Sequence record: OQ589852.1
Strand: one strand, 5' to 3'
DNA: 45,270 nucleotides
Source: Escherichia phage Ioannina
Shown: positions 1,971-45,200 of the stretch, piece by piece
Layout of the letters: each line of letters starts with the position of its first letter
How positions within the stretch are numbered: the first letter of the stretch is position 1
The notes under the pieces: generated by a model
What the model was told of the DNA's origin: nothing
The model's input: the letters and a program-made list of their open reading frames with translations, nothing else
Databases searched by the model: none
Program-made: the position numbers and the translations under genes

Positions 1971-3491
1971 ATGTCTGTAAACGTGGACAACCAACACCCA
2001 CTCTACGCGCGCATTGCGCCTGAGTGGAAGATGATCCGTGACTGCGTTGCAGGTGAAAGGGCCGTTAAAGCGTGCGGCCCGCTTTACTTGCCGTTTCCGT
2101 CCAGTGGCGACAACACCGACCCAAAAGCGAAGGCCCGCTACAATGCATACAAGCAACGTGCGGTCTTCCTGAACGCCACCGCTCGCACGCTTAACGCGTT
2201 GCTGGGTATCGCCTTTGCGAAGCCAGTCACCATGAAGCTGTCCGGTAAAATCGCCGAGCTTATCGACGACGTAGACGGCAGCGGAATGCCATTGCCGCAG
2301 TTACTGCGTGGAGCGATGTCGGAAGTGCTGCAATCCGGGCGAGCCGGTTTTATGGTGGACTATGACCGCCAGGCGCATTTTGACGAACTGGGTAACGTCG
2401 TGCCGCAAACCGCCGCAGAGATGGCGATGCACCGTCCGCTCATTAAGCTGTACACGGCAGAGCAGATCATCAACTGGCGACAGACCCACGGGCAGGACAC
2501 CTTGATCGTGCTGAAAGAGTGCGACGAAATCAGCACCGAAGATACCGACGATTTCGCAAACCACGAAGTTACGATATGGACCGAGCTACGAATGGTCAAC
2601 GGCAAAGCACACGCCCGCCGCTGGTTTTTCAACGCAGACACGTCCGAAGTGCAGATGGATTTACCGCGTGGCTTTACCAAAACCGACCTGGTGCCGCTGG
2701 TAGATTCTGCCGGTCGCGCACTGGATAGCCTGCCGTTTTGCTGGTGTGGTGCAGTCGATAACAACGCCACCCCGGACGCCGCGCCGCTGGCTGATATTGC
2801 GTCCATCAACATTAAGCACTACAACGCCGAAGCGGACGTTGCTGAGATTGCGCACATCGTAGGCCAGCCGACGCTAATCACTACCGGTCTGACCCAATCA
2901 TGGGCCGATAAAAACCTGAAGGGTGGTATCGCGCTCGGTGCGACGAAGGGTGTTATCTTGGGCCAGAACATGGACGCCAAACTGCTTCAGGCCGAAGAAC
3001 GCAACCTGTCCGTGGCATTGTGTGAACGCCGTGAGAAACAGATGGCTAAACTCGGTGCGGCGCTGGTGGAGAAGGGGAGCGCACCTAAAACGGCAACAGA
3101 AGCGGCCTACGACGCGCAGACTGATAACAGTATCTTGTCGCTGATTGCCGGTAACGTTGAGAAGGCATTCAACAAGGCGCTTCAGATCGTGCAGTTGTTC
3201 ACTGGTGACACCGCCGAGCAGACTGTAACCCTGAACAAGTTCTACACCGAAATCACGGTGGATGCGCAGTTGATGACCGCAATGATGAGCGGTGTACAGA
3301 CTGGGACGGTCCGTCTTTCTGATTTCATCAAATGGATGATGGCACAGGGTGTAATCGACGATTCGCAGACTGTAGACCAGGTGGAAGACGACTTGCGGAA
3401 TCAGAATCCGTTGCCGCAAATGTCACCGGATGCGGTAAACTTGGACGATGACGAATCGGACAAGGTAGATGACGATGCCGAGGAAAATTAA
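1971..3491 (+). CDS. portal protein
   Basis: 506 aa directly after TerL; acidic C-terminal tail (DDDESDKVDDDAEEN); size and position typical. Confidence 0.75.
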   Translation: MSVNVDNQHPLYARIAPEWKMIRDCVAGERAVKACGPLYLPFPSSGDNTDPKAKARYNAYKQRAVFLNATARTLNALLGIAFAKPVTMKLSGKIAELIDDVDGSGMPLPQLLRGAMSEVLQSGRAGFMVDYDRQAHFDELGNVVPQTAAEMAMHRPLIKLYTAEQIINWRQTHGQDTLIVLKECDEISTEDTDDFANHEVTIWTELRMVNGKAHARRWFFNADTSEVQMDLPRGFTKTDLVPLVDSAGRALDSLPFCWCGAVDNNATPDAAPLADIASINIKHYNAEADVAEIAHIVGQPTLITTGLTQSWADKNLKGGIALGATKGVILGQNMDAKLLQAEERNLSVALCERREKQMAKLGAALVEKGSAPKTATEAAYDAQTDNSILSLIAGNVEKAFNKALQIVQLFTGDTAEQTVTLNKFYTEITVDAQLMTAMMSGVQTGTVRLSDFIKWMMAQGVIDDSQTVDQVEDDLRNQNPLPQMSPDAVNLDDDESDKVDDDAEEN

Positions 3492-4578
3492 CCAACGACT
3501 GGCGGATCGCATGATTCGCCGTCACATCTTCACCCAGCGCCTGAGCAATGAGCAGGCGCGTAAAGTGCTGGCAATGTGGCAAAAATTCCGTCCTACGTTA
3601 CTGGGTAAGCTGACCGAATTACTTGAGGGCAAGAAGTCAATGAGCAATAAGGCGCTTACCACTCTGCTAACCCAAATCGACAAAACGGTTAAGACCGAAC
3701 TGCGCGACGAGTTTAAAGTGCTGGCTGAAGGTCTGGCGGAGTTTGCCGATACCGAGGCTGAATATCTGACCGACACATTAACGGCAGCACTGCAACCTGC
3801 GCTTTCAGTCCCTGCCGTTGAGGTGGTTGGTGTAGTGACCGGTGCGCAGATTGCAGCGACGGCTATGAAAAATCCATTCCAGGGCAACACGCTTATGCAA
3901 TGGCCTGATTCTCTGTCAGAATGGACCAGAACGCAGATCAGCAATCAGGTGCGCGCCGGATTTATCCAGGGCAAACCTACTATGCAAATTATTGCGGACG
4001 TCAAGCGCGCGTTGGGCGGTCGTAGCGCGCAGGCCATTTCAAGCGTGGTCAAGTCCGCAGTCAACCACTATGCGGCGACCGCACGCGAATTAATGGTAAA
4101 AGCAAATGATGATATTCTCGACGGTCGCCAGTGGCTTTCTACACTGGATACTCACACCTCAACGCTCTGTCAGTTACGCGATCGCCTGTTTTATCCGGTT
4201 GATGTTACCCCCGAAACAAAAGGGAAACGGGACGGGAAAGTGGTGGCTGGATCACAGTATGGCGCTGGTCCTGGCAAGCTACATTATTGTTGCCGTTCTA
4301 CCGAGACGTGGAAAGTCAAGGGTATGGAAGATTGGCCCAGTGGTAAGCGTCCGGCACTGAAGGCCGAAGCGGGTAAACTGCTAAGTGAGCAGGTCAGTGC
4401 TAAGACGGACTTCTTCTCCTGGGTACAGCGCCAGCCGCGGCATATCCTTGAGGAATTATACGGAGTGCAGCGCGCGGACCAGATCCTGCGAGGCGTGAAA
4501 GTTCCGACCATGTTTAACGACGCGGGCGAGCTTATGACGATTCAACAACCAAAAAATAAGGGGTTATGGCGTGATTAA
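3469..4578 (+). CDS. minor head / head morphogenesis protein (Mu gpF / SPP1 gp7-like)
   Basis: 369 aa following and overlapping the portal gene; start codon uncertain (several in-frame Met). Confidence 0.55.
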   Translation: MTMPRKINQRLADRMIRRHIFTQRLSNEQARKVLAMWQKFRPTLLGKLTELLEGKKSMSNKALTTLLTQIDKTVKTELRDEFKVLAEGLAEFADTEAEYLTDTLTAALQPALSVPAVEVVGVVTGAQIAATAMKNPFQGNTLMQWPDSLSEWTRTQISNQVRAGFIQGKPTMQIIADVKRALGGRSAQAISSVVKSAVNHYAATARELMVKANDDILDGRQWLSTLDTHTSTLCQLRDRLFYPVDVTPETKGKRDGKVVAGSQYGAGPGKLHYCCRSTETWKVKGMEDWPSGKRPALKAEAGKLLSEQVSAKTDFFSWVQRQPRHILEELYGVQRADQILRGVKVPTMFNDAGELMTIQQPKNKGLWRD

Positions 4579-4879
4579 ATACGCAGCAGCCGGATTGATT
4601 CTCGGCCTTGTAATTGGGTTCTGGCAAGGTGACAACTATCGTGCTGGCGTGGTGGCGGAGGCGGCGCAGGAAGCGCAAGCCAAAGCCCAACGGCAGCAAA
4701 CTAAGGTAATCCATGAGTCGGTACAGAAAGAGCAGGCCCGCGAAGTGGAGTTCCGCACAGTTGAGAAAGAGGTGATTAAATATGTCACGCGTCCTGATCG
4801 CGATAATTGTAAGTTTGATGCTGACCGCGTGCGGATCAAGCAACGTGCCGTTGATGCCGCTAACGGAATCAGCAATTAA
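4571..4879 (+). CDS. Rz-like i-spanin
   Basis: N-terminal TM helix (AAAGLILGLVIGFW), Q/A/E-rich coiled coil; an out-of-frame lipoprotein ORF overlaps its 3' half, the classic Rz/Rz1 arrangement. Confidence 0.6.
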   Translation: MIKYAAAGLILGLVIGFWQGDNYRAGVVAEAAQEAQAKAQRQQTKVIHESVQKEQAREVEFRTVEKEVIKYVTRPDRDNCKFDADRVRIKQRAVDAANGISN

Positions 4880-5012
4880 GCCGCCGTGTAAGTTTGAGTC
4901 GCCATCGGAAGATCCGGACGAAGATTTAGCGATTGATGTGCGAAATATGAAATGCGGGGCGGAGTTAAGGGCACAAGTGCTGGATTTGCAGAAATTAATT
5001 AAGGGGCCGTAA
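4782..5012 (+). CDS. Rz1-like o-spanin lipoprotein
   Basis: Signal peptide with lipobox LTAC, Pro-rich mature part with Cys; begins inside Rz in another frame and runs past its stop. Confidence 0.65.
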   Translation: MSRVLIAIIVSLMLTACGSSNVPLMPLTESAIKPPCKFESPSEDPDEDLAIDVRNMKCGAELRAQVLDLQKLIKGP

Positions 5013-5025
5013 TGGCCCCTTTCTA
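5002..5025. terminator. bidirectional rho-independent terminator (AAGGGGCC-loop-GGCCCCTTT)
   Basis: GC-rich perfect stem flanked by A-run and T-run; lies between convergent Rz1 and the minus-strand gene. Confidence 0.7.
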
Positions 5026-5787
5026 TTAGCGCGGAATACCGCAGATTTCGTTTAGTGTCTTCACGTCAAGCGCTACTGCCGTTGACTTCTTCTCTTCCTG
5101 CGGGATGAACTGTTTCACTTCAGGCCATGCCTTAATAAGTTTGGTGTCTGTAGTGTACTTATTCAGAGTACCCATAACTGACAATTTAAACTCATCGTAT
5201 TTAGCACGTAAATCGCGGCGCGCCTTGTCGTTCTTATCCAGACGTTTGCAAAATTCATGCTCTGCCGGGTAATCTGCACGACCGCGAGGCTTGTAGATCG
5301 GCACTTGCTCACCTTCCGCGTTAATTTCCACCAGCGCCGTAAGTAGCGCAGTTTCAAACCCAGGTACGATTTCGCCAATGTCCGGGGCCATCGAGTTATT
5401 GTAGCGGTCTTCCCAGTAGCCTCGGTGACAGCGGCTGCTGTAGTTATCACCGCTCAATGACAGTGTGCGGATGTTACCACCCATGTTGACTTCGAACGTT
5501 GCATCGTACACAGCACCAATGCCGTGGGGCATGTCCTTGTTATGGCTGAAGGTTGCACGGCTGGCGTACACGCTTATGCTAAACATGCCGTTATTTGTGT
5601 CTTGATAGCTGCGCATCATTTTCTGCAACCCAACGAAGCTGGTAACACCTTTCGGCATCTGATCCAGAGTGATATCCAGCGCCAGGTCGCGCGATTCGGT
5701 CATTAACTTTTTGGCCTGCTTCGTGATTTCGTGGCCTGCCAGGATGTTAGCCAGGATTTGCTTTTTAATGTCTTTAGTCAGTCTCAT
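5026..5787 (-). CDS. hypothetical protein, early-promoter-driven minus-strand gene inside the structural module
   Basis: About 253 aa from MRLTKDIKK with GAGGAAACAACA RBS; own promoter upstream and own terminator downstream; no recognisable motif. Confidence 0.5.
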   Translation of the reverse strand: MRLTKDIKKQILANILAGHEITKQAKKLMTESRDLALDITLDQMPKGVTSFVGLQKMMRSYQDTNNGMFSISVYASRATFSHNKDMPHGIGAVYDATFEVNMGGNIRTLSLSGDNYSSRCHRGYWEDRYNNSMAPDIGEIVPGFETALLTALVEINAEGEQVPIYKPRGRADYPAEHEFCKRLDKNDKARRDLRAKYDEFKLSVMGTLNKYTTDTKLIKAWPEVKQFIPQEEKKSTAVALDVKTLNEICGIPR

Positions 5788-5810
5788 TGTTGTTTCCTCG
5801 TTTGTTGGTG

Positions 5811-5885
5811 TGCAACCAATATATTGCAACCAATTAGCCAATGCAAGCAAATTTTGTGATTATTTTTATCACTGATAATATTAAG
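5811..5885. promoter_or_regulatory. divergent promoter region with tandem TGCAACCAAT repeats
   Basis: Minus strand reads TTGCAT-N17-TATATT, overlapping two ATTGGTTGCA copies; plus strand has TTGTGA-N16-TAATAT upstream of the scaffold gene. Confidence 0.55.
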
Positions 5886-5937
5886 GGCGTGAAGTCGAGC
5901 GGGTGGCCCGCTCTGCCACAATCCCTGGGGGATGTTA

Positions 5938-6641
5938 TGAAACTGACTAAAGCAGAATATGACGCGTTGCCTGAAGGCATGAAAGCATTGTTTGTTGCCG
6001 ATGGTGACGGGTACAAGGCGACGTTTATGACCGCCGAAGAAGTACAGGCCGAGATCAAAGGTCTGAAGGATAACAACGCGAAGCTGGTAGGCGAGAAAAA
6101 GGCAGAAGCCGAACGCCGTGCCGAAGCGGAGCGACTCGCTAAAGAGAAAGAGGAAGCCGCAGCGCGCAAGAACGGCGACCTTGAAGCGATCGATAAGTCC
6201 TGGCAGGACAAGTTTACTAAATACGATGCGGATACGAAGGGCAAAATCGAAGCCTACCGCAAACAGATTCACGATCTTACCATCGGCAGCACTGCCAAAG
6301 ACCTGGCATCAAAGCTGTTCGGTAAGAACGCTGGCATTATGCAACGCCACGTCATGGACCGCCTTGCGCTGGAAGAAGGCGAAGACGGCAGTCTGAAAGT
6401 GCGCGTATTGCAGGACGGCAAACCATCCGCACTGACTATGGAAGAACTGGAGAAAGAGTTCCGTAGTAACGAAGATTTCGCGTCCGTCCTGGCGGGTACG
6501 CCTGCCGGTGGTGCGCCGAGCAAACCGACCCATGTAATCGACGATCCGAAATCTAAGATTCAGATGGGTCATAGCTTCGGCATCACTGACTTGACCAAAC
6601 AGGCCAGCGATATTATCGCCAAACTGGGCGACGACGAGTAA
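5938..6641 (+). CDS. scaffolding protein
   Basis: About 234 aa from MKLTKAEYDAL; charged coiled-coil (AEAERRAEAERLAKEKEEAAARK); directly upstream of major capsid gene. The track's longer ORF from 5841 is probably an over-extension. Confidence 0.65.
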
Positions 6642-6738: not shown

Positions 6739-7860
6739 ATGTCTTTAACAGTGTTCCAGCGTAAACTCGTCACCGCGGTTACGCAAATGATCCCCGACAA
6801 CTTGAACGTCTTCAACGCTGCCGCTAACGGCGCGGTCGTTCTCGGTACTGGCGAAGTGCTGAAAGATGTTGTCGAGAAGATGTCTGTAGGTCTGATCGCC
6901 AACCTGGTGTCTGACCGTAACGCATATGCCCCGGTTGGTACTCCTGCCGATGCGAAAGTGCTGGCGCGTATGCTGACCAACTCCGTTAACCTGTCCGCGA
7001 AAGTCGGTCCTGTTGCAATCACCAAAGCTATGATGGCTAAAATCGAAACCAACGTTAACAGCGTTGCGGCTGAGATTGCGGCACAGGCTACTCAAGCTAT
7101 CTTGCTGCACTACCTGAAAGCGGGTATCGGCGCTGGTAAAGCTGCGATCGACTCTAACGATGCGGCGAAATATACCCAACCGGCGCGCGTTGACGGTGTA
7201 GGCGGTCGTACCTTCCCGACCCTGGCAGACTTCCCGCTGGCGGCGGCTAAGTTCGGCGATCAGGCATCTCTGATTAAGTCCTGGTTTATGGACGGTGTGA
7301 CCTGGGCTAACTTCATTGCATATCAGGCGCTGCCTTCTGCTGAGCAGGTGTTCGCGATCGGCGACCTTCAGGTAATGGGTGATGGCTTAGGCCGCCGCTT
7401 TATTATCTCCGATGCCGCTGCCGATGCAATGGGCGCTGGCAAAATGCTGGGTCTTGTTCCGGGCGCGGTAGCAGTTACTACCAACGGTCTGGATATGCTG
7501 GCGCAGGAGCGTGGTGGTAACGAGAACATCGAGCGCTGGTGGCAGGGTGAGTTTGACTTTAACGTCGCTGTTAAAGGCTATCGCATGACCGCGGCAGCAC
7601 GCGCAGGCGTTGAAGGCGTCCGTTCCTTCAAACTGGCTGATATTACCAATACCAGTAACTGGGAACTGGATCAGGGCCAGGTCGATAACGCGCCGTACAC
7701 TACCTACGACGTTGGCGGCACGGATACTGAAGAGGGATCTACCACTTCACTGAAAGAGAAAGGTCGTCGTCGTAAGCAGGACGCGCAGGCCGTACCGACC
7801 CGCCACATCAAGGAAACTGCCGGTGTGTTGGTAACTCTGACGGCAACCACCGCATCTTAA
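6739..7860 (+). CDS. major capsid protein
   Basis: 373 aa, Ala/Gly/Val-rich; follows scaffold; strong terminator hairpin after the stop. Confidence 0.8.
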   Translation: MSLTVFQRKLVTAVTQMIPDNLNVFNAAANGAVVLGTGEVLKDVVEKMSVGLIANLVSDRNAYAPVGTPADAKVLARMLTNSVNLSAKVGPVAITKAMMAKIETNVNSVAAEIAAQATQAILLHYLKAGIGAGKAAIDSNDAAKYTQPARVDGVGGRTFPTLADFPLAAAKFGDQASLIKSWFMDGVTWANFIAYQALPSAEQVFAIGDLQVMGDGLGRRFIISDAAADAMGAGKMLGLVPGAVAVTTNGLDMLAQERGGNENIERWWQGEFDFNVAVKGYRMTAAARAGVEGVRSFKLADITNTSNWELDQGQVDNAPYTTYDVGGTDTEEGSTTSLKEKGRRRKQDAQAVPTRHIKETAGVLVTLTATTAS

Positions 7861-8883: not shown

Positions 8884-9474
8884 GTGGCAGAACAGTATTC
8901 TTTCGCGGCTACGATCGCAACGTGGGTAGAGAAGACGAAAGAGAACAACGATAAGGCGGTGCGGGCGGTGGGTATGCAAATCCTCGGTCGCCTTATCGAG
9001 ATCTCGCCAGTTGGCGACCCGAAGCGCTGGAAGATTAACCGCGCTTTCGCCCTTGCGCGGGAACACGCTAACAGAGTTAACGCCGCACAGCGCAAGAAGA
9101 ACGGCGGCAAACTGAAGCGAGGCCAGAAGAAGCACGCAAGCGTACTGGTTAGCTTCACGACGAAGAAAGGGCAGGTGACTTTCCGCCAGCGTGGCTGGGC
9201 AGCTAAGAATTACACCGGCGGGCGCTTCCGGGGAAACTGGCAGGTGTCATTTGATCGCCCGGCTACCGGTACAGTTGACCGCATCGACAAGGCGGGGGCC
9301 GCCACACTTGCCGCAGGGCGTGAGATTCTGGTGCAGTATGATTCGGACACGTACGGGTCGATCTGGTTTACTAACAATGTGCCGTATGCGCAGCGACTGG
9401 AGTACGGCTGGAGTAAACAAGCGCCCGCGGGCATCGTCCGCGTAGTGGCGGCAGAAATTAATTCGAAGGTGTGA
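8884..9474 (+). CDS. neck / head-tail joining protein (putative)
   Basis: 196 aa, GTG start after AAGGGG; call by position. Confidence 0.4.
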   Translation: MAEQYSFAATIATWVEKTKENNDKAVRAVGMQILGRLIEISPVGDPKRWKINRAFALAREHANRVNAAQRKKNGGKLKRGQKKHASVLVSFTTKKGQVTFRQRGWAAKNYTGGRFRGNWQVSFDRPATGTVDRIDKAGAATLAAGREILVQYDSDTYGSIWFTNNVPYAQRLEYGWSKQAPAGIVRVVAAEINSKV

Positions 9475-41773: not shown

Positions 41774-41910
41774 GCGCAACCATCCGTGATATGCTTATGC
41801 ACAACCGTTTTGAGATAGGCGGTCGGGTGTTTCGCAATTACTTCGTGGCGCGTGCCTGGGCGCGCCATATTGGCAAACCGGAGAAAGAGATAAAATGCTA
41901 TACGATGTGA
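41770..41910 (+). CDS. small hypothetical protein
   Basis: About 46 aa from MSATIRDM; overlaps neighbours; weak. Confidence 0.25.
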   Translation: MSATIRDMLMHNRFEIGGRVFRNYFVARAWARHIGKPEKEIKCYTM

Positions 41911-42182
41911 TATTTTGGTTCGGGTTATTCTGCGCAATCTTACTGGTTGGCGCTGTTACCCTGGTGATTGCAGTCTGGTTTATATGGCCTGCCGTTGAGG
42001 CCGTGAGCATTACCCGCATGACCTTCGCCTACTACAAGAAACACAGCATCACGCAACATTCCAGCAGGCTTAGGGTGTGGTGGCTGTGGTATCGCGATAT
42101 GCTCGGAGGCAGGCGGTTCGAGGCCATCAGGTCACACGGTTGGGAATGGCAAGGCGTAGGACGCTGGTCAATTTCAGAATAA
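41895..42182 (+). CDS. membrane protein
   Basis: N-terminal hydrophobic span (VIFWFGLFCAILLVGAVTLVIAVWFIW), Trp/Arg-rich C-terminus. Confidence 0.4.
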   Translation: MLYDVIFWFGLFCAILLVGAVTLVIAVWFIWPAVEAVSITRMTFAYYKKHSITQHSSRLRVWWLWYRDMLGGRRFEAIRSHGWEWQGVGRWSISE

Positions 42183-42203
42183 TTATGCAGTCGTGATATA
42201 GTC

Positions 42204-42233
42204 CCCAGTGAGGTTTAATCTTACTGGGGCTTT
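42204..42233 (+). terminator. rho-independent terminator
   Basis: CCCCAGT-loop-ACTGGGG followed by CTTTTT. Confidence 0.55.
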
Positions 42234-42235
42234 TT

Positions 42236-42538
42236 ATGGAAGTTTTCCACAAATTAGATGAATGGGTAATTATCGCCGCTGCCGGGGTGGCGGGTGGCTT
42301 CGTAGGTGCGCGTATGCACCCGGAAGCTGCACAAGGACCGGTAAACTTTGTGCTGTTCGTCGTCGTTGGCTTCCTGTGTGCGGTATTCGGCGCACCAGCC
42401 ATCGCCGAACTGACCGGATTGACCAGTCAGCGCATGATCGCAGGTCTTGGATTCGTAACGGCAATCTTCTGGATGCCGATTGCGGCACGGATCCGAGAGC
42501 TAATCGCTAATGCCCGCTTTCCGGGAGGTGCCAAATGA
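42236..42538 (+). CDS. holin-like membrane protein
   Basis: 100 aa, three predicted TM segments, charged C-terminus; directly upstream of the lysozyme gene. Confidence 0.5.
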   Translation: MEVFHKLDEWVIIAAAGVAGGFVGARMHPEAAQGPVNFVLFVVVGFLCAVFGAPAIAELTGLTSQRMIAGLGFVTAIFWMPIAARIRELIANARFPGGAK

Positions 42539-42801
42539 TTTTCGGCGTCGATGTTTGTGCGTGGTTTGGCGTTATGTTCTTCCTCATCGTCGGCGTGTCG
42601 TCGCTGTACAACGTCTACGCCGCATCCGTGAATGACGGCCTTGTTGGTCGTGTGCTCTATCTCTTAACGGCAGTCTTCTGCGTGGTCGGCTTGATGCAAA
42701 CCGGGCATGTGGAGAACGCCACTATCAACGCCATTTGCTGGCTGTTTGCATTGCGCACCCTGCGCAATGCTGTTTTGAAAGGTGTAAAACATGCAATTTA
42801 G
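42535..42801 (+). CDS. holin/antiholin-like membrane protein
   Basis: 88 aa, two or three TM segments; overlaps both neighbours. Confidence 0.45.
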   Translation: MIFGVDVCAWFGVMFFLIVGVSSLYNVYAASVNDGLVGRVLYLLTAVFCVVGLMQTGHVENATINAICWLFALRTLRNAVLKGVKHAI

Positions 42802-43276
42802 TGAGAATGGTTTGCGGTTTACTGCCGCATGGGAGACGTTTAGCCCGGTGCCCTACTTCGCCACGAAGAAAGAGCAGGAGCAAGGTCTTTATACCTGGGG
42901 CTTCGGTCATACGGGCACTAACCCGCCGCGCAGCATTACCCGCACTGAGGCAATGGAACTACTGCGCAAGGATATTGCCATTGCTGAGAAGTTTGTTCAG
43001 CGCGCAATGCCGATCGGGGCGTTCAACCAGGCCCAGTACGACGCGCTTGTGGATCTGGTCTTCAACGTAGGGCCGCGTGCCATCGGGGCTAATACCGGAA
43101 CTGGTCGTGCAGTTCGTGCCGGTGATATTCAGACGATCCGTGCTAAACTGCCTCAATTCCGTATGCAAGCCGGGGTTGTTGTCAAGGGTCTGGTGCGTCG
43201 CGCTAACGGACGCCTGGCACTGTTCGACGGTAAGCAGTGGGACGTTGCCGAGCGTATCGGTCGTAATTCAGCTTAA
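42791..43276 (+). CDS. endolysin (T4-type lysozyme, GH24-like)
   Basis: N-terminal ENGLRFTAAWE…YTWGFGHTG follows the T4 lysozyme E…D…T pattern. Confidence 0.75.
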   Translation: MQFSENGLRFTAAWETFSPVPYFATKKEQEQGLYTWGFGHTGTNPPRSITRTEAMELLRKDIAIAEKFVQRAMPIGAFNQAQYDALVDLVFNVGPRAIGANTGTGRAVRAGDIQTIRAKLPQFRMQAGVVVKGLVRRANGRLALFDGKQWDVAERIGRNSA

Positions 43277-43285
43277 GGGGGAGAT

Positions 43286-43693
43286 ATGTTAAAAAGTATT
43301 CTTGATCATAATGCGGACGCGCTTGACGCGTTGGCTAAAACGGACGACGCTGGCGCGCGTCGCATCATTGCAAACACCATCAGCCATGCTGGGGTGTTTG
43401 GTGCAAGCCTTCCGGGGCCTAAGCCGGATGTGAAGGTGTCAAGCGCCACAGTAACGGTAACACCAGAGGAAGTTACAATCGGCACCAAGTCTAAGGCTAC
43501 GGTGGCGGTGCAACCGGCAGGGGCGACCGATAAATCCGGTGTGTGGATTAGTGGGTCGCCAACCATCGCCACCGTTGACGCTTCGGGTAATATCGACGGC
43601 AAAACTCCCGGTTCTGTCGATATTATTTGGGTGGCTAAGGATGGAAGCGGGGTGTCGGGCCGAAAAACGGTAACTGTGGCAAACGCCGAGTAA
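43286..43693 (+). CDS. bacterial Ig-like (Big_2-type) domain protein
   Basis: C-terminal 80 aa (ATVAVQPAGATDKSGVWISGSPTIATVDASGNIDGKTPGSVDIIWVAKDGSGVSGRKTVTV) is a typical Big_2 fold; no signal peptide. Confidence 0.55.
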   Translation: MLKSILDHNADALDALAKTDDAGARRIIANTISHAGVFGASLPGPKPDVKVSSATVTVTPEEVTIGTKSKATVAVQPAGATDKSGVWISGSPTIATVDASGNIDGKTPGSVDIIWVAKDGSGVSGRKTVTVANAE

Positions 43694-43811: not shown

Positions 43812-44954
43812 ATGCACCCTCAAACCAAAATTACAGACGAGCAGTTGATCGCCGAAATCCAGGCGGGAACGACCGCGAAAGATATTGCTAAGAAATACGG
43901 GATTGCACTGCGCAATGTTTATATGCGCAAAGCACGCTTATCTAAAAAGGGGATTGGGCACGGTAACGATGCCGTAATTCGTAAGCGGGTTGCCGATGGC
44001 TTCGGCGTGAAACGTGTATCCGCCCTGGTACGAGGCAATGGCGAAGAGGTCATGTCGTGGGTTATCACCGAGCAGGACAAAGAGCGCCAGCTTGAGGCGA
44101 TGCGTGCAGTGCTGGACGGCATGAACAGCGAAATCACACCGGCAGCACCCGTAAGCGCGCCACCAGTCCCGATCCAGGCGCTGGACCTGCTAAACCTGTA
44201 CACCGTGTCCGACTTCCACCTGGGGATGCTGGCATGGGGAGAAGAGACTGGCGAGGATTGGGATATGGCTATTGCCGAAGACCTGTTCTACCGCTGGTTT
44301 GTCGAAGCCTTTGCCCGCGCCCCGGATGCCGGAACAGGCGTGATTAACATCCTCGGTGATATGGCCCACTTTGACAGCCTGGATGCCGTTACCCCCGCAA
44401 GTGGTCACGTCCTGGATGCCGATACCCGCTATCAGAAGCTGGTGCGCTACATGATTCGCATGGTCCGCCGCGTTGTCGAACTGGCATTGCAGAAACACCA
44501 CAAGGTTAAACTGCTAATCGTGCAGGGCAACCATGACGAAAGCGGTATGATCTGGCTGGCGGAGATGTTCGCTACGCTGTACGAGAACGAGCCGCGCGTT
44601 GAGGTGGATACGTCGCCGGATGTCTATAAGATGGTCCAGCACGGTAAGACTACGCTGTTCTTCCATCACGGGCACAAGGCTAAATTCGACGCTATCGAGC
44701 CGGTCATGATTTCGAAATTTCGTGAGGCGTTCGGATCCAGCCAGTACAGCTATGCTCACGTAGGACACCTGCACCACCAGAAGATTATCGAATCGCGCAA
44801 CATGATTGTTGAACAGCACCGCACGCTTGCCGCGAAGGATGCCTACGCCAGCCGAGGCGGTTGGATGAGCGGACGCAGTGCAAACGTGATAACCTATAGC
44901 GCGAACTACGGTGAAGTAGCACGCTTAACCATTAGCCCGGAGATGTTGAAATGA
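43812..44954 (+). CDS. HTH domain fused to calcineurin-like metallophosphoesterase
   Basis: N-terminal HTH (TAKDIAKKYGIALRNVYMRKARL); metallophosphatase motifs GDMAHFD, GNHDE and HHGH. Confidence 0.55.
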   Translation: MHPQTKITDEQLIAEIQAGTTAKDIAKKYGIALRNVYMRKARLSKKGIGHGNDAVIRKRVADGFGVKRVSALVRGNGEEVMSWVITEQDKERQLEAMRAVLDGMNSEITPAAPVSAPPVPIQALDLLNLYTVSDFHLGMLAWGEETGEDWDMAIAEDLFYRWFVEAFARAPDAGTGVINILGDMAHFDSLDAVTPASGHVLDADTRYQKLVRYMIRMVRRVVELALQKHHKVKLLIVQGNHDESGMIWLAEMFATLYENEPRVEVDTSPDVYKMVQHGKTTLFFHHGHKAKFDAIEPVMISKFREAFGSSQYSYAHVGHLHHQKIIESRNMIVEQHRTLAAKDAYASRGGWMSGRSANVITYSANYGEVARLTISPEMLK

Positions 44955-45171: not shown

Positions 45172-45200
45172 CAGGCCCGCTTACGCGGGCTTTTTTGTGT
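45172..45200 (+). terminator. rho-independent terminator
   Basis: GCCCGC-TTAC-GCGGGC followed by TTTTTTGTG. Confidence 0.65.

Follow-up and report, generated by a model that had tools for sequence, protein, structure and literature searches.

The Rz/Rz1 pair of phage lambda is the experimentally defined prototype of the spanins. Closer to the locus considered here, Kongari et al. (2018; PMC6139136) placed both spanin subunits of the HK578-like phages HK578, EK99P-1, EP23, JL1, SSL-2009a, and SO-1 in a family of overlapped spanins named 'Jersey'. In the BASEL phages PaulFeyerabend (Bas15) and JohannBuxtorf (Bas84), the corresponding pair of genes is annotated as i-spanin and o-spanin, and in EK99P-1 and Envy the genes at the same position carry the label 'Rz-like spanin'. 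We analyzed the 45,270-nucleotide (nt) sequence of Escherichia phage Ioannina (OQ589852.1), hereafter the window, which is a complete Dhillonvirus genome (an HK578-like siphophage) opened at the small terminase gene. Two overlapping genes of this genome, at 4571–4879 and 4782–5012, probably encode its two-component spanin, of overlapped architecture and Jersey family; we put the probability of this reading at roughly nine in ten. For the two-component spanin as a functional class, we follow Summer et al. (2007) and Kongari et al. (2018). The locus itself has these features:

4571–4879, + strand: i-spanin gene, GTG start, 102 amino acids (aa); from the list of open reading frames (ORFs), phrog_2536, hydropathy, and alignment
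4782–5012, + strand: o-spanin gene, ATG start, 76 aa, in the +1 frame relative to the i-spanin; from phrog_5672 and the lipobox
4782–4879, + strand: dual-coding overlap of 98 nt, i-spanin 3′ end and o-spanin signal sequence
4558–4563, + strand: Shine–Dalgarno-like AAGGGG, 7 nt before the i-spanin GTG
4769–4775, + strand: Shine–Dalgarno-like GAGGTGA, within the i-spanin coding sequence, 6 nt before the o-spanin ATG

Both ORFs lie exactly where an original prediction, made from this sequence, had located an overlapping pair (4571–5012), and they share 98 nt. The o-spanin ORF runs beyond the i-spanin stop codon, an arrangement that defines the 'overlapped' class. Upstream, the i-spanin GTG overlaps the stop codon of the minor head gene (TAA, 4576–4578) by 8 nt; this overlap is conserved and suggests that the i-spanin may be translationally coupled to the minor head gene. 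The GGGG motif and GTG of the i-spanin are kept in six other Dhillonviruses, as is the Shine–Dalgarno context of the o-spanin, AAAGAGGT.

The o-spanin begins with MSRVLIAIIVSLMLTA followed by CGSS, that is, a signal peptide and the lipobox LTA–C17, with Gly at the +2 position. The lipoprotein signal was judged by regular expression and hydropathy. An alignment of 12 o-spanin homologs from Dhillonvirus, Jerseyvirus, Kagunavirus, and one Klebsiella Guernseyvirinae phage shows the lipobox Cys17, Cys36, and Cys58 to be invariant in all 12. The residue at +2 in these homologs is G, Q, S, N, or R and never D, the Asp associated with avoidance of Lol sorting. The mature protein of 60 aa contains seven Pro and the two further Cys (C36, C58). 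In a lenient lipobox scan of the whole 45-kilobase (kb) genome, the o-spanin was the only credible lipoprotein ORF; a second candidate, a TTG-initiated ORF at 9110–8871, lies antisense inside a structural gene and was judged spurious.

The 102-aa i-spanin, whose N-terminus reads MIKYAAAGLILGLVIGFWQG, has a single hydrophobic segment at approximately residues 4–19 (Kyte–Doolittle 15-residue maximum of 2.03). This would be the N-terminal transmembrane segment by which two-component spanins are defined, and it predicts an N-in/C-out topology. Beyond it lie a 48-residue stretch free of Pro and Gly, a P75…C80 linker, and a second helix-prone stretch; residues 27–73 (47 scored) are 64% A/E/Q/K/R. 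The single periplasmic Cys, C80, is at least 90% conserved in an alignment of 16 i-spanins. Judging from these sequences, periplasmic Cys would be available for intermolecular disulfides in both subunits (C80; C36 and C58). A profile search of the PDB with the i-spanin alignment returned nothing meaningful, its best hit being a ribosomal protein at E 0.17.

Within Dhillonvirus the C-terminus of the i-spanin is polymorphic, occurring as a 102-aa form (…GISN or …RVGL) and a 109-aa form (…GVGTATAVQVR), the extension of which resembles the Guernseyvirinae tail (…ATAVQ…). The variation sits in and just past the dual-coding overlap (window positions 4860–4879 and homologous positions). This fits the published observation that the i-spanin's far C-terminal end is the part that varies in overlapped families (Kongari et al., 2018; PMC6139136).

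Profile matches and sequence evolution both support the assignment. The i-spanin matches phrog_2536 (E 7.5e-31) and the o-spanin matches phrog_5672 (E 1.9e-22), each labeled 'Rz-like spanin'. Ratios of nonsynonymous to synonymous change (pN/pS) were computed for the 442-nt locus against six other Dhillonviruses with 74–78% nucleotide identity and gapless alignments, using the non-overlapping parts. The i-spanin gave a pN/pS of 0.29 in its own frame as compared with at least 1.1 off-frame; the o-spanin gave 0.25 in its own frame as compared with 2.2–2.6 off-frame. Both spanin genes are under purifying selection in their own frames. Synonymous-site divergence falls to 0.13–0.33 in the overlap, in either frame, from 0.5–0.65 in the single-coding parts, a drop that is expected because the overlap codes for two proteins.

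The pairs of other Dhillonviruses (PaulFeyerabend bas15_0005/0006, JohannBuxtorf Bas84_0005/0006, and EK99P-1 gp05/gp06) are orthologs at 65–78% aa identity. Like that of Ioannina, they follow the minor head gene and precede an antisense 765-nt gene and the scaffold gene, and they match it in locus length (442 nt), start codons (GTG and ATG), presence of the lipobox, and arrangement of the Cys. Differences are at the level of alleles only: Ioannina has LTAC where other Dhillonviruses have LSAC, and its i-spanin is 102 aa where some relatives have 109 aa. Identity to the listed Jersey members EK99P-1, EP23, and SSL-2009a is 74–78%. BLASTP also connects both subunits to SETP3, another listed member, with 36% identity between the i-spanin and gp07 (E 2e-15) and 44% between the o-spanin and gp08 (E 3e-20). 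Similarity of both subunits together with overlapped architecture, the features by which the family was drawn up, place the Ioannina pair in the Jersey family, with BLAST used here where the authors of the classification used BLASTCLUST.

More broadly, the Jersey pairs of the Guernseyvirinae (Jerseyvirus SETP3 gp07/gp08, Kagunavirus K1G gp06/gp07, and Schulenberg QEG06797/QEG06798) are homologous to that of Ioannina at 36–40% identity for the i-spanin and 38–50% for the o-spanin. They too are overlapped and have conserved Cys, and they lie at a distance from holin and endolysin, flanked by head-morphogenesis or decoration genes on one side and the scaffold gene on the other. In the Guernseyvirinae the i-spanins, at approximately 128 aa, are extended at the N-terminus and carry a C-terminal tail, and the o-spanins are 82–87 aa; neighboring genes encode a Hoc-like decoration protein, HNH, sliding clamp, or amidase, whereas Ioannina has an Nmad5-domain gene. 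By tblastn, i-spanin homologs were found in 610 phage records and o-spanin homologs in 644, mainly from Salmonella and Escherichia phages.

Annotation of the o-spanin among these relatives is uneven. A protein 100% identical to that of Ioannina is named 'prokaryotic lipoprotein lipid attachment site [Escherichia phage Ioannina]'. The RefSeq o-spanins of EK99P-1 and Envy start internally, at 52 aa (1784–1942 as compared with 1712–1942 in the compared stretches); as annotated they lack the signal peptide and lipobox, though nothing is missing from the underlying 76-aa ORF, LSAC included. Phage bob has no i-spanin annotation and UHP65 no o-spanin annotation, and the protein database holds three entries for the o-spanin as compared with 61 for the i-spanin.

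The wider genome supplies the context for the position of the pair. The region is 99.0–99.8% identical to three records named 'Dhillonvirus LM40P1' and approximately 82% identical to more than 100 Dhillonvirus genomes. Its neighbors, and the distant lysis cassette, are:

1–573, + strand: terS
573–1958, + strand: terL
1971–3491, + strand: portal gene
3469–4578, + strand: SPP1-gp7-like minor head/head morphogenesis protein (phrog_241, E 5.4e-110)
5026–5850, − strand: antisense Nmad5-domain gene (PF18757, E 5.9e-43, aligned from residue 22; phrog_1965, function unknown)
approximately 5937–6641, + strand: head scaffolding protein (phrog_206, E 9.9e-48); the longest ORF starts at 5841, and relatives are annotated at approximately 234 aa
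6739–7860, + strand: major capsid protein (PF20036, Gp13-like)
41895–42182, + strand: small membrane protein, 95 aa (phrog_2531, function unknown)
42236–42538, + strand: holin (phrog_2359, E 6.9e-27; annotated as holin in PaulFeyerabend)
42535–42801, + strand: second small membrane protein, holin or antiholin (hydrophobic segments; the syntenic gene is a holin in PaulFeyerabend)
42791–43276, + strand: endolysin of the phage lysozyme family (PF00959, E 2.9e-23; phrog_7), with no N-terminal membrane or signal-arrest-release (SAR) segment
43286–43693, + strand: Ig-domain (Big_2) protein
43812–44954, + strand: exonuclease

The placement of the pair between the minor head and scaffold genes, as originally proposed, holds in that the former lies upstream and the latter downstream; however, the antisense Nmad5-domain gene intervenes before the scaffold gene. 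This gene, the true start of which is likely ATG 5787 rather than TTG 5850, is context and stands outside the spanin system; a 765-nt minus-strand gene is annotated at its position in all Dhillonvirus relatives examined, as 'hypothetical' in most. The holin-like genes and lysozyme, expected at 42.2–43.3 kb, were located at 42236–43276. From the endolysin stop codon to the i-spanin start, measured across the genome ends, the distance is 6,564 nt (6.56 kb), in agreement with the separation of about 6.5 kb anticipated for a circularly permuted genome. A search for a second spanin or a u-spanin found no candidate beside the endolysin, where the adjoining ORFs encode the Ig-domain protein and the exonuclease. 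PaulFeyerabend likewise has holin, holin, and endolysin genes at the far end of its genome.

The same slot is occupied by the pair in SETP3, K1G, RP180, VLCpiS11a, and Schulenburg. The genes around it (terS, terL, portal, gp7-like, and scaffold) are collinear homologs at 25–41% aa identity, as compared with 36–50% for the spanins. Since the collinear neighbors are of comparable identity, the placement of the spanins within the head module is, as judged from these alignments, ancestral to Dhillonvirus and Guernseyvirinae and would have been inherited with the head module.

The original prediction had treated the separation of the spanins from the lysis cassette as unusual. That premise is weak: over 600 records of related phages keep this layout, and the published genome announcement of one relative, Schulenberg (PMC6763661), describes holin and endolysin as "genetically separate" from the overlapping spanins. 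It is also implicit in published gene lists, namely those of Jerseyvirus SeF1 (Gp9/10 as compared with Gp63–65, with PHROGs as in Ioannina), Golestan (ORF7/8 as compared with ORF66–68), and Dhillonvirus P78 (gene 40 as compared with genes 31–33). The announcements of Shelanagig, Shashou, and Shemara (CPT) and the Sciku paper do not mention spanins.

Three hairpins bear on how the pair may be transcribed:

5001–5021, no strand assigned: GC-rich hairpin with an 8-base-pair stem, located where the o-spanin and Nmad5-domain genes converge; its loop contains the o-spanin stop codon
43699–43721, + strand: strong terminator-like hairpin with T-tract, downstream of the lysis cassette and Ig-domain gene
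45173–45192, + strand: strong terminator-like hairpin with T-tract, just upstream of terS across the genome ends

The hairpin at 5001–5021 is kept in relatives, with compensatory changes in the stem and better T-tracts, and a 'terminator' feature is annotated at its place in phage WFI; it is probably a bidirectional terminator or a hairpin marking a transcript end. No plus-strand promoter-like site was found before the pair in a sigma-70 consensus scan, the results of which were at shuffle level, so this absence carries little weight. Together, the overlap of the GTG with the minor head stop codon, the conserved Shine–Dalgarno-like motif, the lack of a preceding promoter-like site, and the hairpin point to the spanins as the last genes of a terminase–portal–minor head unit, and it is plausible, as a prediction from these signals, that they are cotranscribed with the head genes. 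The other two hairpins stand between the lysis cassette and the head genes and argue against one continuous late transcript.

Several results weigh against this account of the pair and its expression. Pfam and NCBIfam scans of both proteins matched no spanin model: the only Pfam result was a sub-threshold hit to DUF2570 (15.7 bits against a cut-off of 26.6, in a search to E 0.1), and neither protein matches PF03245 (Phage_lysis) or PF06085 (Rz1) at E up to 0.1. In the same Pfam scan, lambda Rz and Rz1 scored 183 bits (2.6e-54) and 72 bits (2.9e-20), respectively, as positive controls. BLASTP against lambda Rz/Rz1 likewise detected no similarity (E 33 and 4.1). Because no spanin model matched while the lambda control did, we do not file the pair under lambda Rz/Rz1; its earlier description as 'Rz/Rz1-like' is apt as an analogy of architecture and presumed mechanism, but not as a statement of sequence family. 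Nor was the coiled coil attributed to the i-spanin demonstrated. In a crude test of heptad register over residues 27–73, the best score was matched by 4778 of 5000 shuffles, and the AlphaFold monomer, with helices at 3–72 and 84–98, is of low confidence (mean predicted local distance difference test score, pLDDT, of 59.5). At the 3′ end of the pair, the terminator scan lists the 5001–5021 hairpin on the minus strand, with a weak plus-strand T-tract, and its RNA fold of −15.7 kcal/mol has a modest z-score of −1.6. Finally, no experimental assay of this spanin family (complementation, lipidation, or localization) was found in the literature, and the spanin function is for that reason deduced from sequence features and bioinformatic classification.

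The lack of a published assay and of a Pfam or NCBIfam spanin match would also suit a different role, in which the pair is an envelope-modifying or superinfection-exclusion module whose genes are expressed alongside the structural ones: a membrane protein partnered with a receptor-blocking lipoprotein comparable to T5 Llp or phi80/N15 Cor. The location of the pair outside the lysis cassette is compatible with such a role, and small lipoproteins of virulent siphophages are, as a matter of general knowledge, often exclusion factors. However, an obligate overlapping type II membrane partner, with conserved periplasmic Cys in both proteins, is the signature of a spanin. The pair retains 36–50% identity across phages of Escherichia, Salmonella, Klebsiella, and Raoultella, and a single receptor common to all of these is unlikely. 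If the lipoprotein served exclusion, it should vary together with the receptor-binding protein. The genome moreover has a canonical holin and soluble lysozyme and no other spanin candidate, and 586 of 677 Gram-negative phages surveyed had a spanin (Kongari et al., 2018; PMC6139136). An exclusion module is accordingly very improbable. The uneven annotation of the o-spanin invites a further doubt, namely that the 76-aa ORF is a chance frame and that only the 102-aa membrane protein is real, with a role in head assembly or elsewhere: gene callers often miss the ORF (three database proteins as compared with 61), and several records leave it unannotated or give it a truncated start. Sequence evolution refutes this, leaving it a negligible probability. 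In its non-overlapping part the frame has the pN/pS of 0.25 given above against 2.2–2.6 off-frame; the ORF is intact, with its lipobox and three invariant Cys, in lineages only 41–46% identical; its Shine–Dalgarno motif and ATG are conserved; and it matches phrog_5672 at E 1.9e-22.

An alternative of another kind accepts the same spanins and differs on their transcription: a long late transcript from upstream of the holin gene could read through the genome ends, making the spanins the distal genes of the lysis-cassette unit. On a circularly permuted or concatemeric template, the plus-strand orientation is unbroken from approximately 40.6 kb through the ends to 5012, and no convincing plus-strand sigma-70-like promoter was seen immediately before the terminase or head genes, in a scan at chance level. 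That scan considered sigma-70 consensus sites alone and did not rise above shuffles, so the missing promoter weighs little, whereas a transcript leaving the cassette would meet two strong plus-strand terminator-like hairpins, each with a T-tract, before the terminase gene. We regard read-through as unlikely, though as a serious contender, and retain cotranscription with the head genes as the plausible arrangement.

If the pair is a Jersey spanin, its action can be sketched by analogy with lambda Rz/Rz1. The i-spanin would be anchored in the inner membrane in type II orientation, its C-terminal domain lying in the periplasm, and the o-spanin would be lipidated at Cys17 and, because no Asp stands at +2, sorted to the outer membrane. 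The C-terminal domains of the two would bind to form disulfide-stabilized complexes that cross the periplasm through the peptidoglycan mesh. Transcription would run from terminase through portal and minor head genes to the spanins and end at the 5001–5021 hairpin, with translation of the i-spanin coupled to that of the minor head gene. The holin (42236–42538) would release the soluble lysozyme (42791–43276) to degrade the wall; the spanin complexes, thus freed, would fuse the inner and outer membranes and complete lysis. Since the spanins would be inert until the wall is gone, late accumulation would suffice, and expression from a head operon would be compatible with their function. A stronger version, in which the coupling is itself functional and translation of a low-copy head protein determines how much spanin is made, or when, without reference to the holin clock, strikes us as rather doubtful; if true, it would tie the capacity for outer-membrane disruption to the progress of head-gene expression.

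Side observations concern both loci. In the lysis region, a further terminator-like hairpin (42203–42229, + strand; 12-base-pair stem, T-tract) lies between the 95-aa membrane-protein gene and the holin gene, and a weak promoter-like site precedes the holin gene at 42173–42202; the holin cassette may have its own transcription start. The Big_2 gene directly 3′ of the endolysin (43286–43693, 135 aa) occupies the slot that spanins hold in lambda-like cassettes. In its product a Big_2 Ig-like domain follows a brief conserved N-terminal segment (phrog_11068), and only 39 of the 123 records that match it cover at least 80% of the protein; in sampled relatives such as JL1 and PaulFeyerabend, only the first 60 or so aa were matched (a 53-aa gene in PaulFeyerabend), and the StarDew record labels the full-length protein 'putative lysozyme'. 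ARAGORN detected neither tRNA nor tmRNA genes across the whole sequence (1–45270).

In the head region, the stretch between the portal/head-morphogenesis genes and the scaffold gene looks like a hot-spot for cargo. Its accessory genes vary by lineage and are often encoded on the other strand: Dhillonvirus has Nmad5 there, Schulenburg a DNA polymerase III sliding clamp and HNH endonuclease (4576–5145 and 5636–6157 in the compared stretch), and SETP3 an amidase (3319–3969). One Dhillonvirus match also lists a 'DNA polymerase III beta subunit'. When the head regions of SETP3, K1G, and Schulenburg were searched by tblastn to E 1e-3, the major capsid protein (6739–7860) went unmatched, while terS, terL, portal, gp7-like, both spanins, and scaffold were matched, except for terS in K1G, which lies outside the searched stretch. 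This suggests replacement of the capsid gene, or its much faster divergence, in an otherwise collinear module.

The spanin pair, its family class, and its separation from the lysis cassette are already known. The Ioannina spanins are orthologs of pairs already in SpaninDB, in Kongari et al. (2018), and in annotated GenBank relatives, and a layout with the spanins apart from the cassette is conserved across Dhillonvirus, Jerseyvirus, and Kagunavirus. The significance of the locus is small beyond correct annotation. It does serve as a reminder, for annotation and engineering, that lysis functions occupy two loci in coliphages and salmophages used for therapy and biocontrol, and that the o-spanin is often missed or given a truncated start.

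Set beside the lambda prototype, the Ioannina pair has the same general design: a predicted type II inner-membrane protein with helical periplasmic segments and a Pro-containing outer-membrane lipoprotein, the latter encoded in the +1 frame, with periplasmic Cys in both subunits of both systems. It differs in that lambda Rz1 is embedded within Rz and the lambda pair stands at the end of the S–R–Rz/Rz1 cassette, whereas the Ioannina pair is overlapped and 6.56 kb from its endolysin. For that separation, T4 offers a precedent in PseT.3/PseT.2, spanins encoded away from both holin (t) and endolysin (e) (PMC6139136). The T4 pair, of an unrelated family, is 'separated' where the Ioannina genes are overlapped, and the T4 holin and endolysin are also unlinked to one another, whereas in Ioannina they form a compact cassette.

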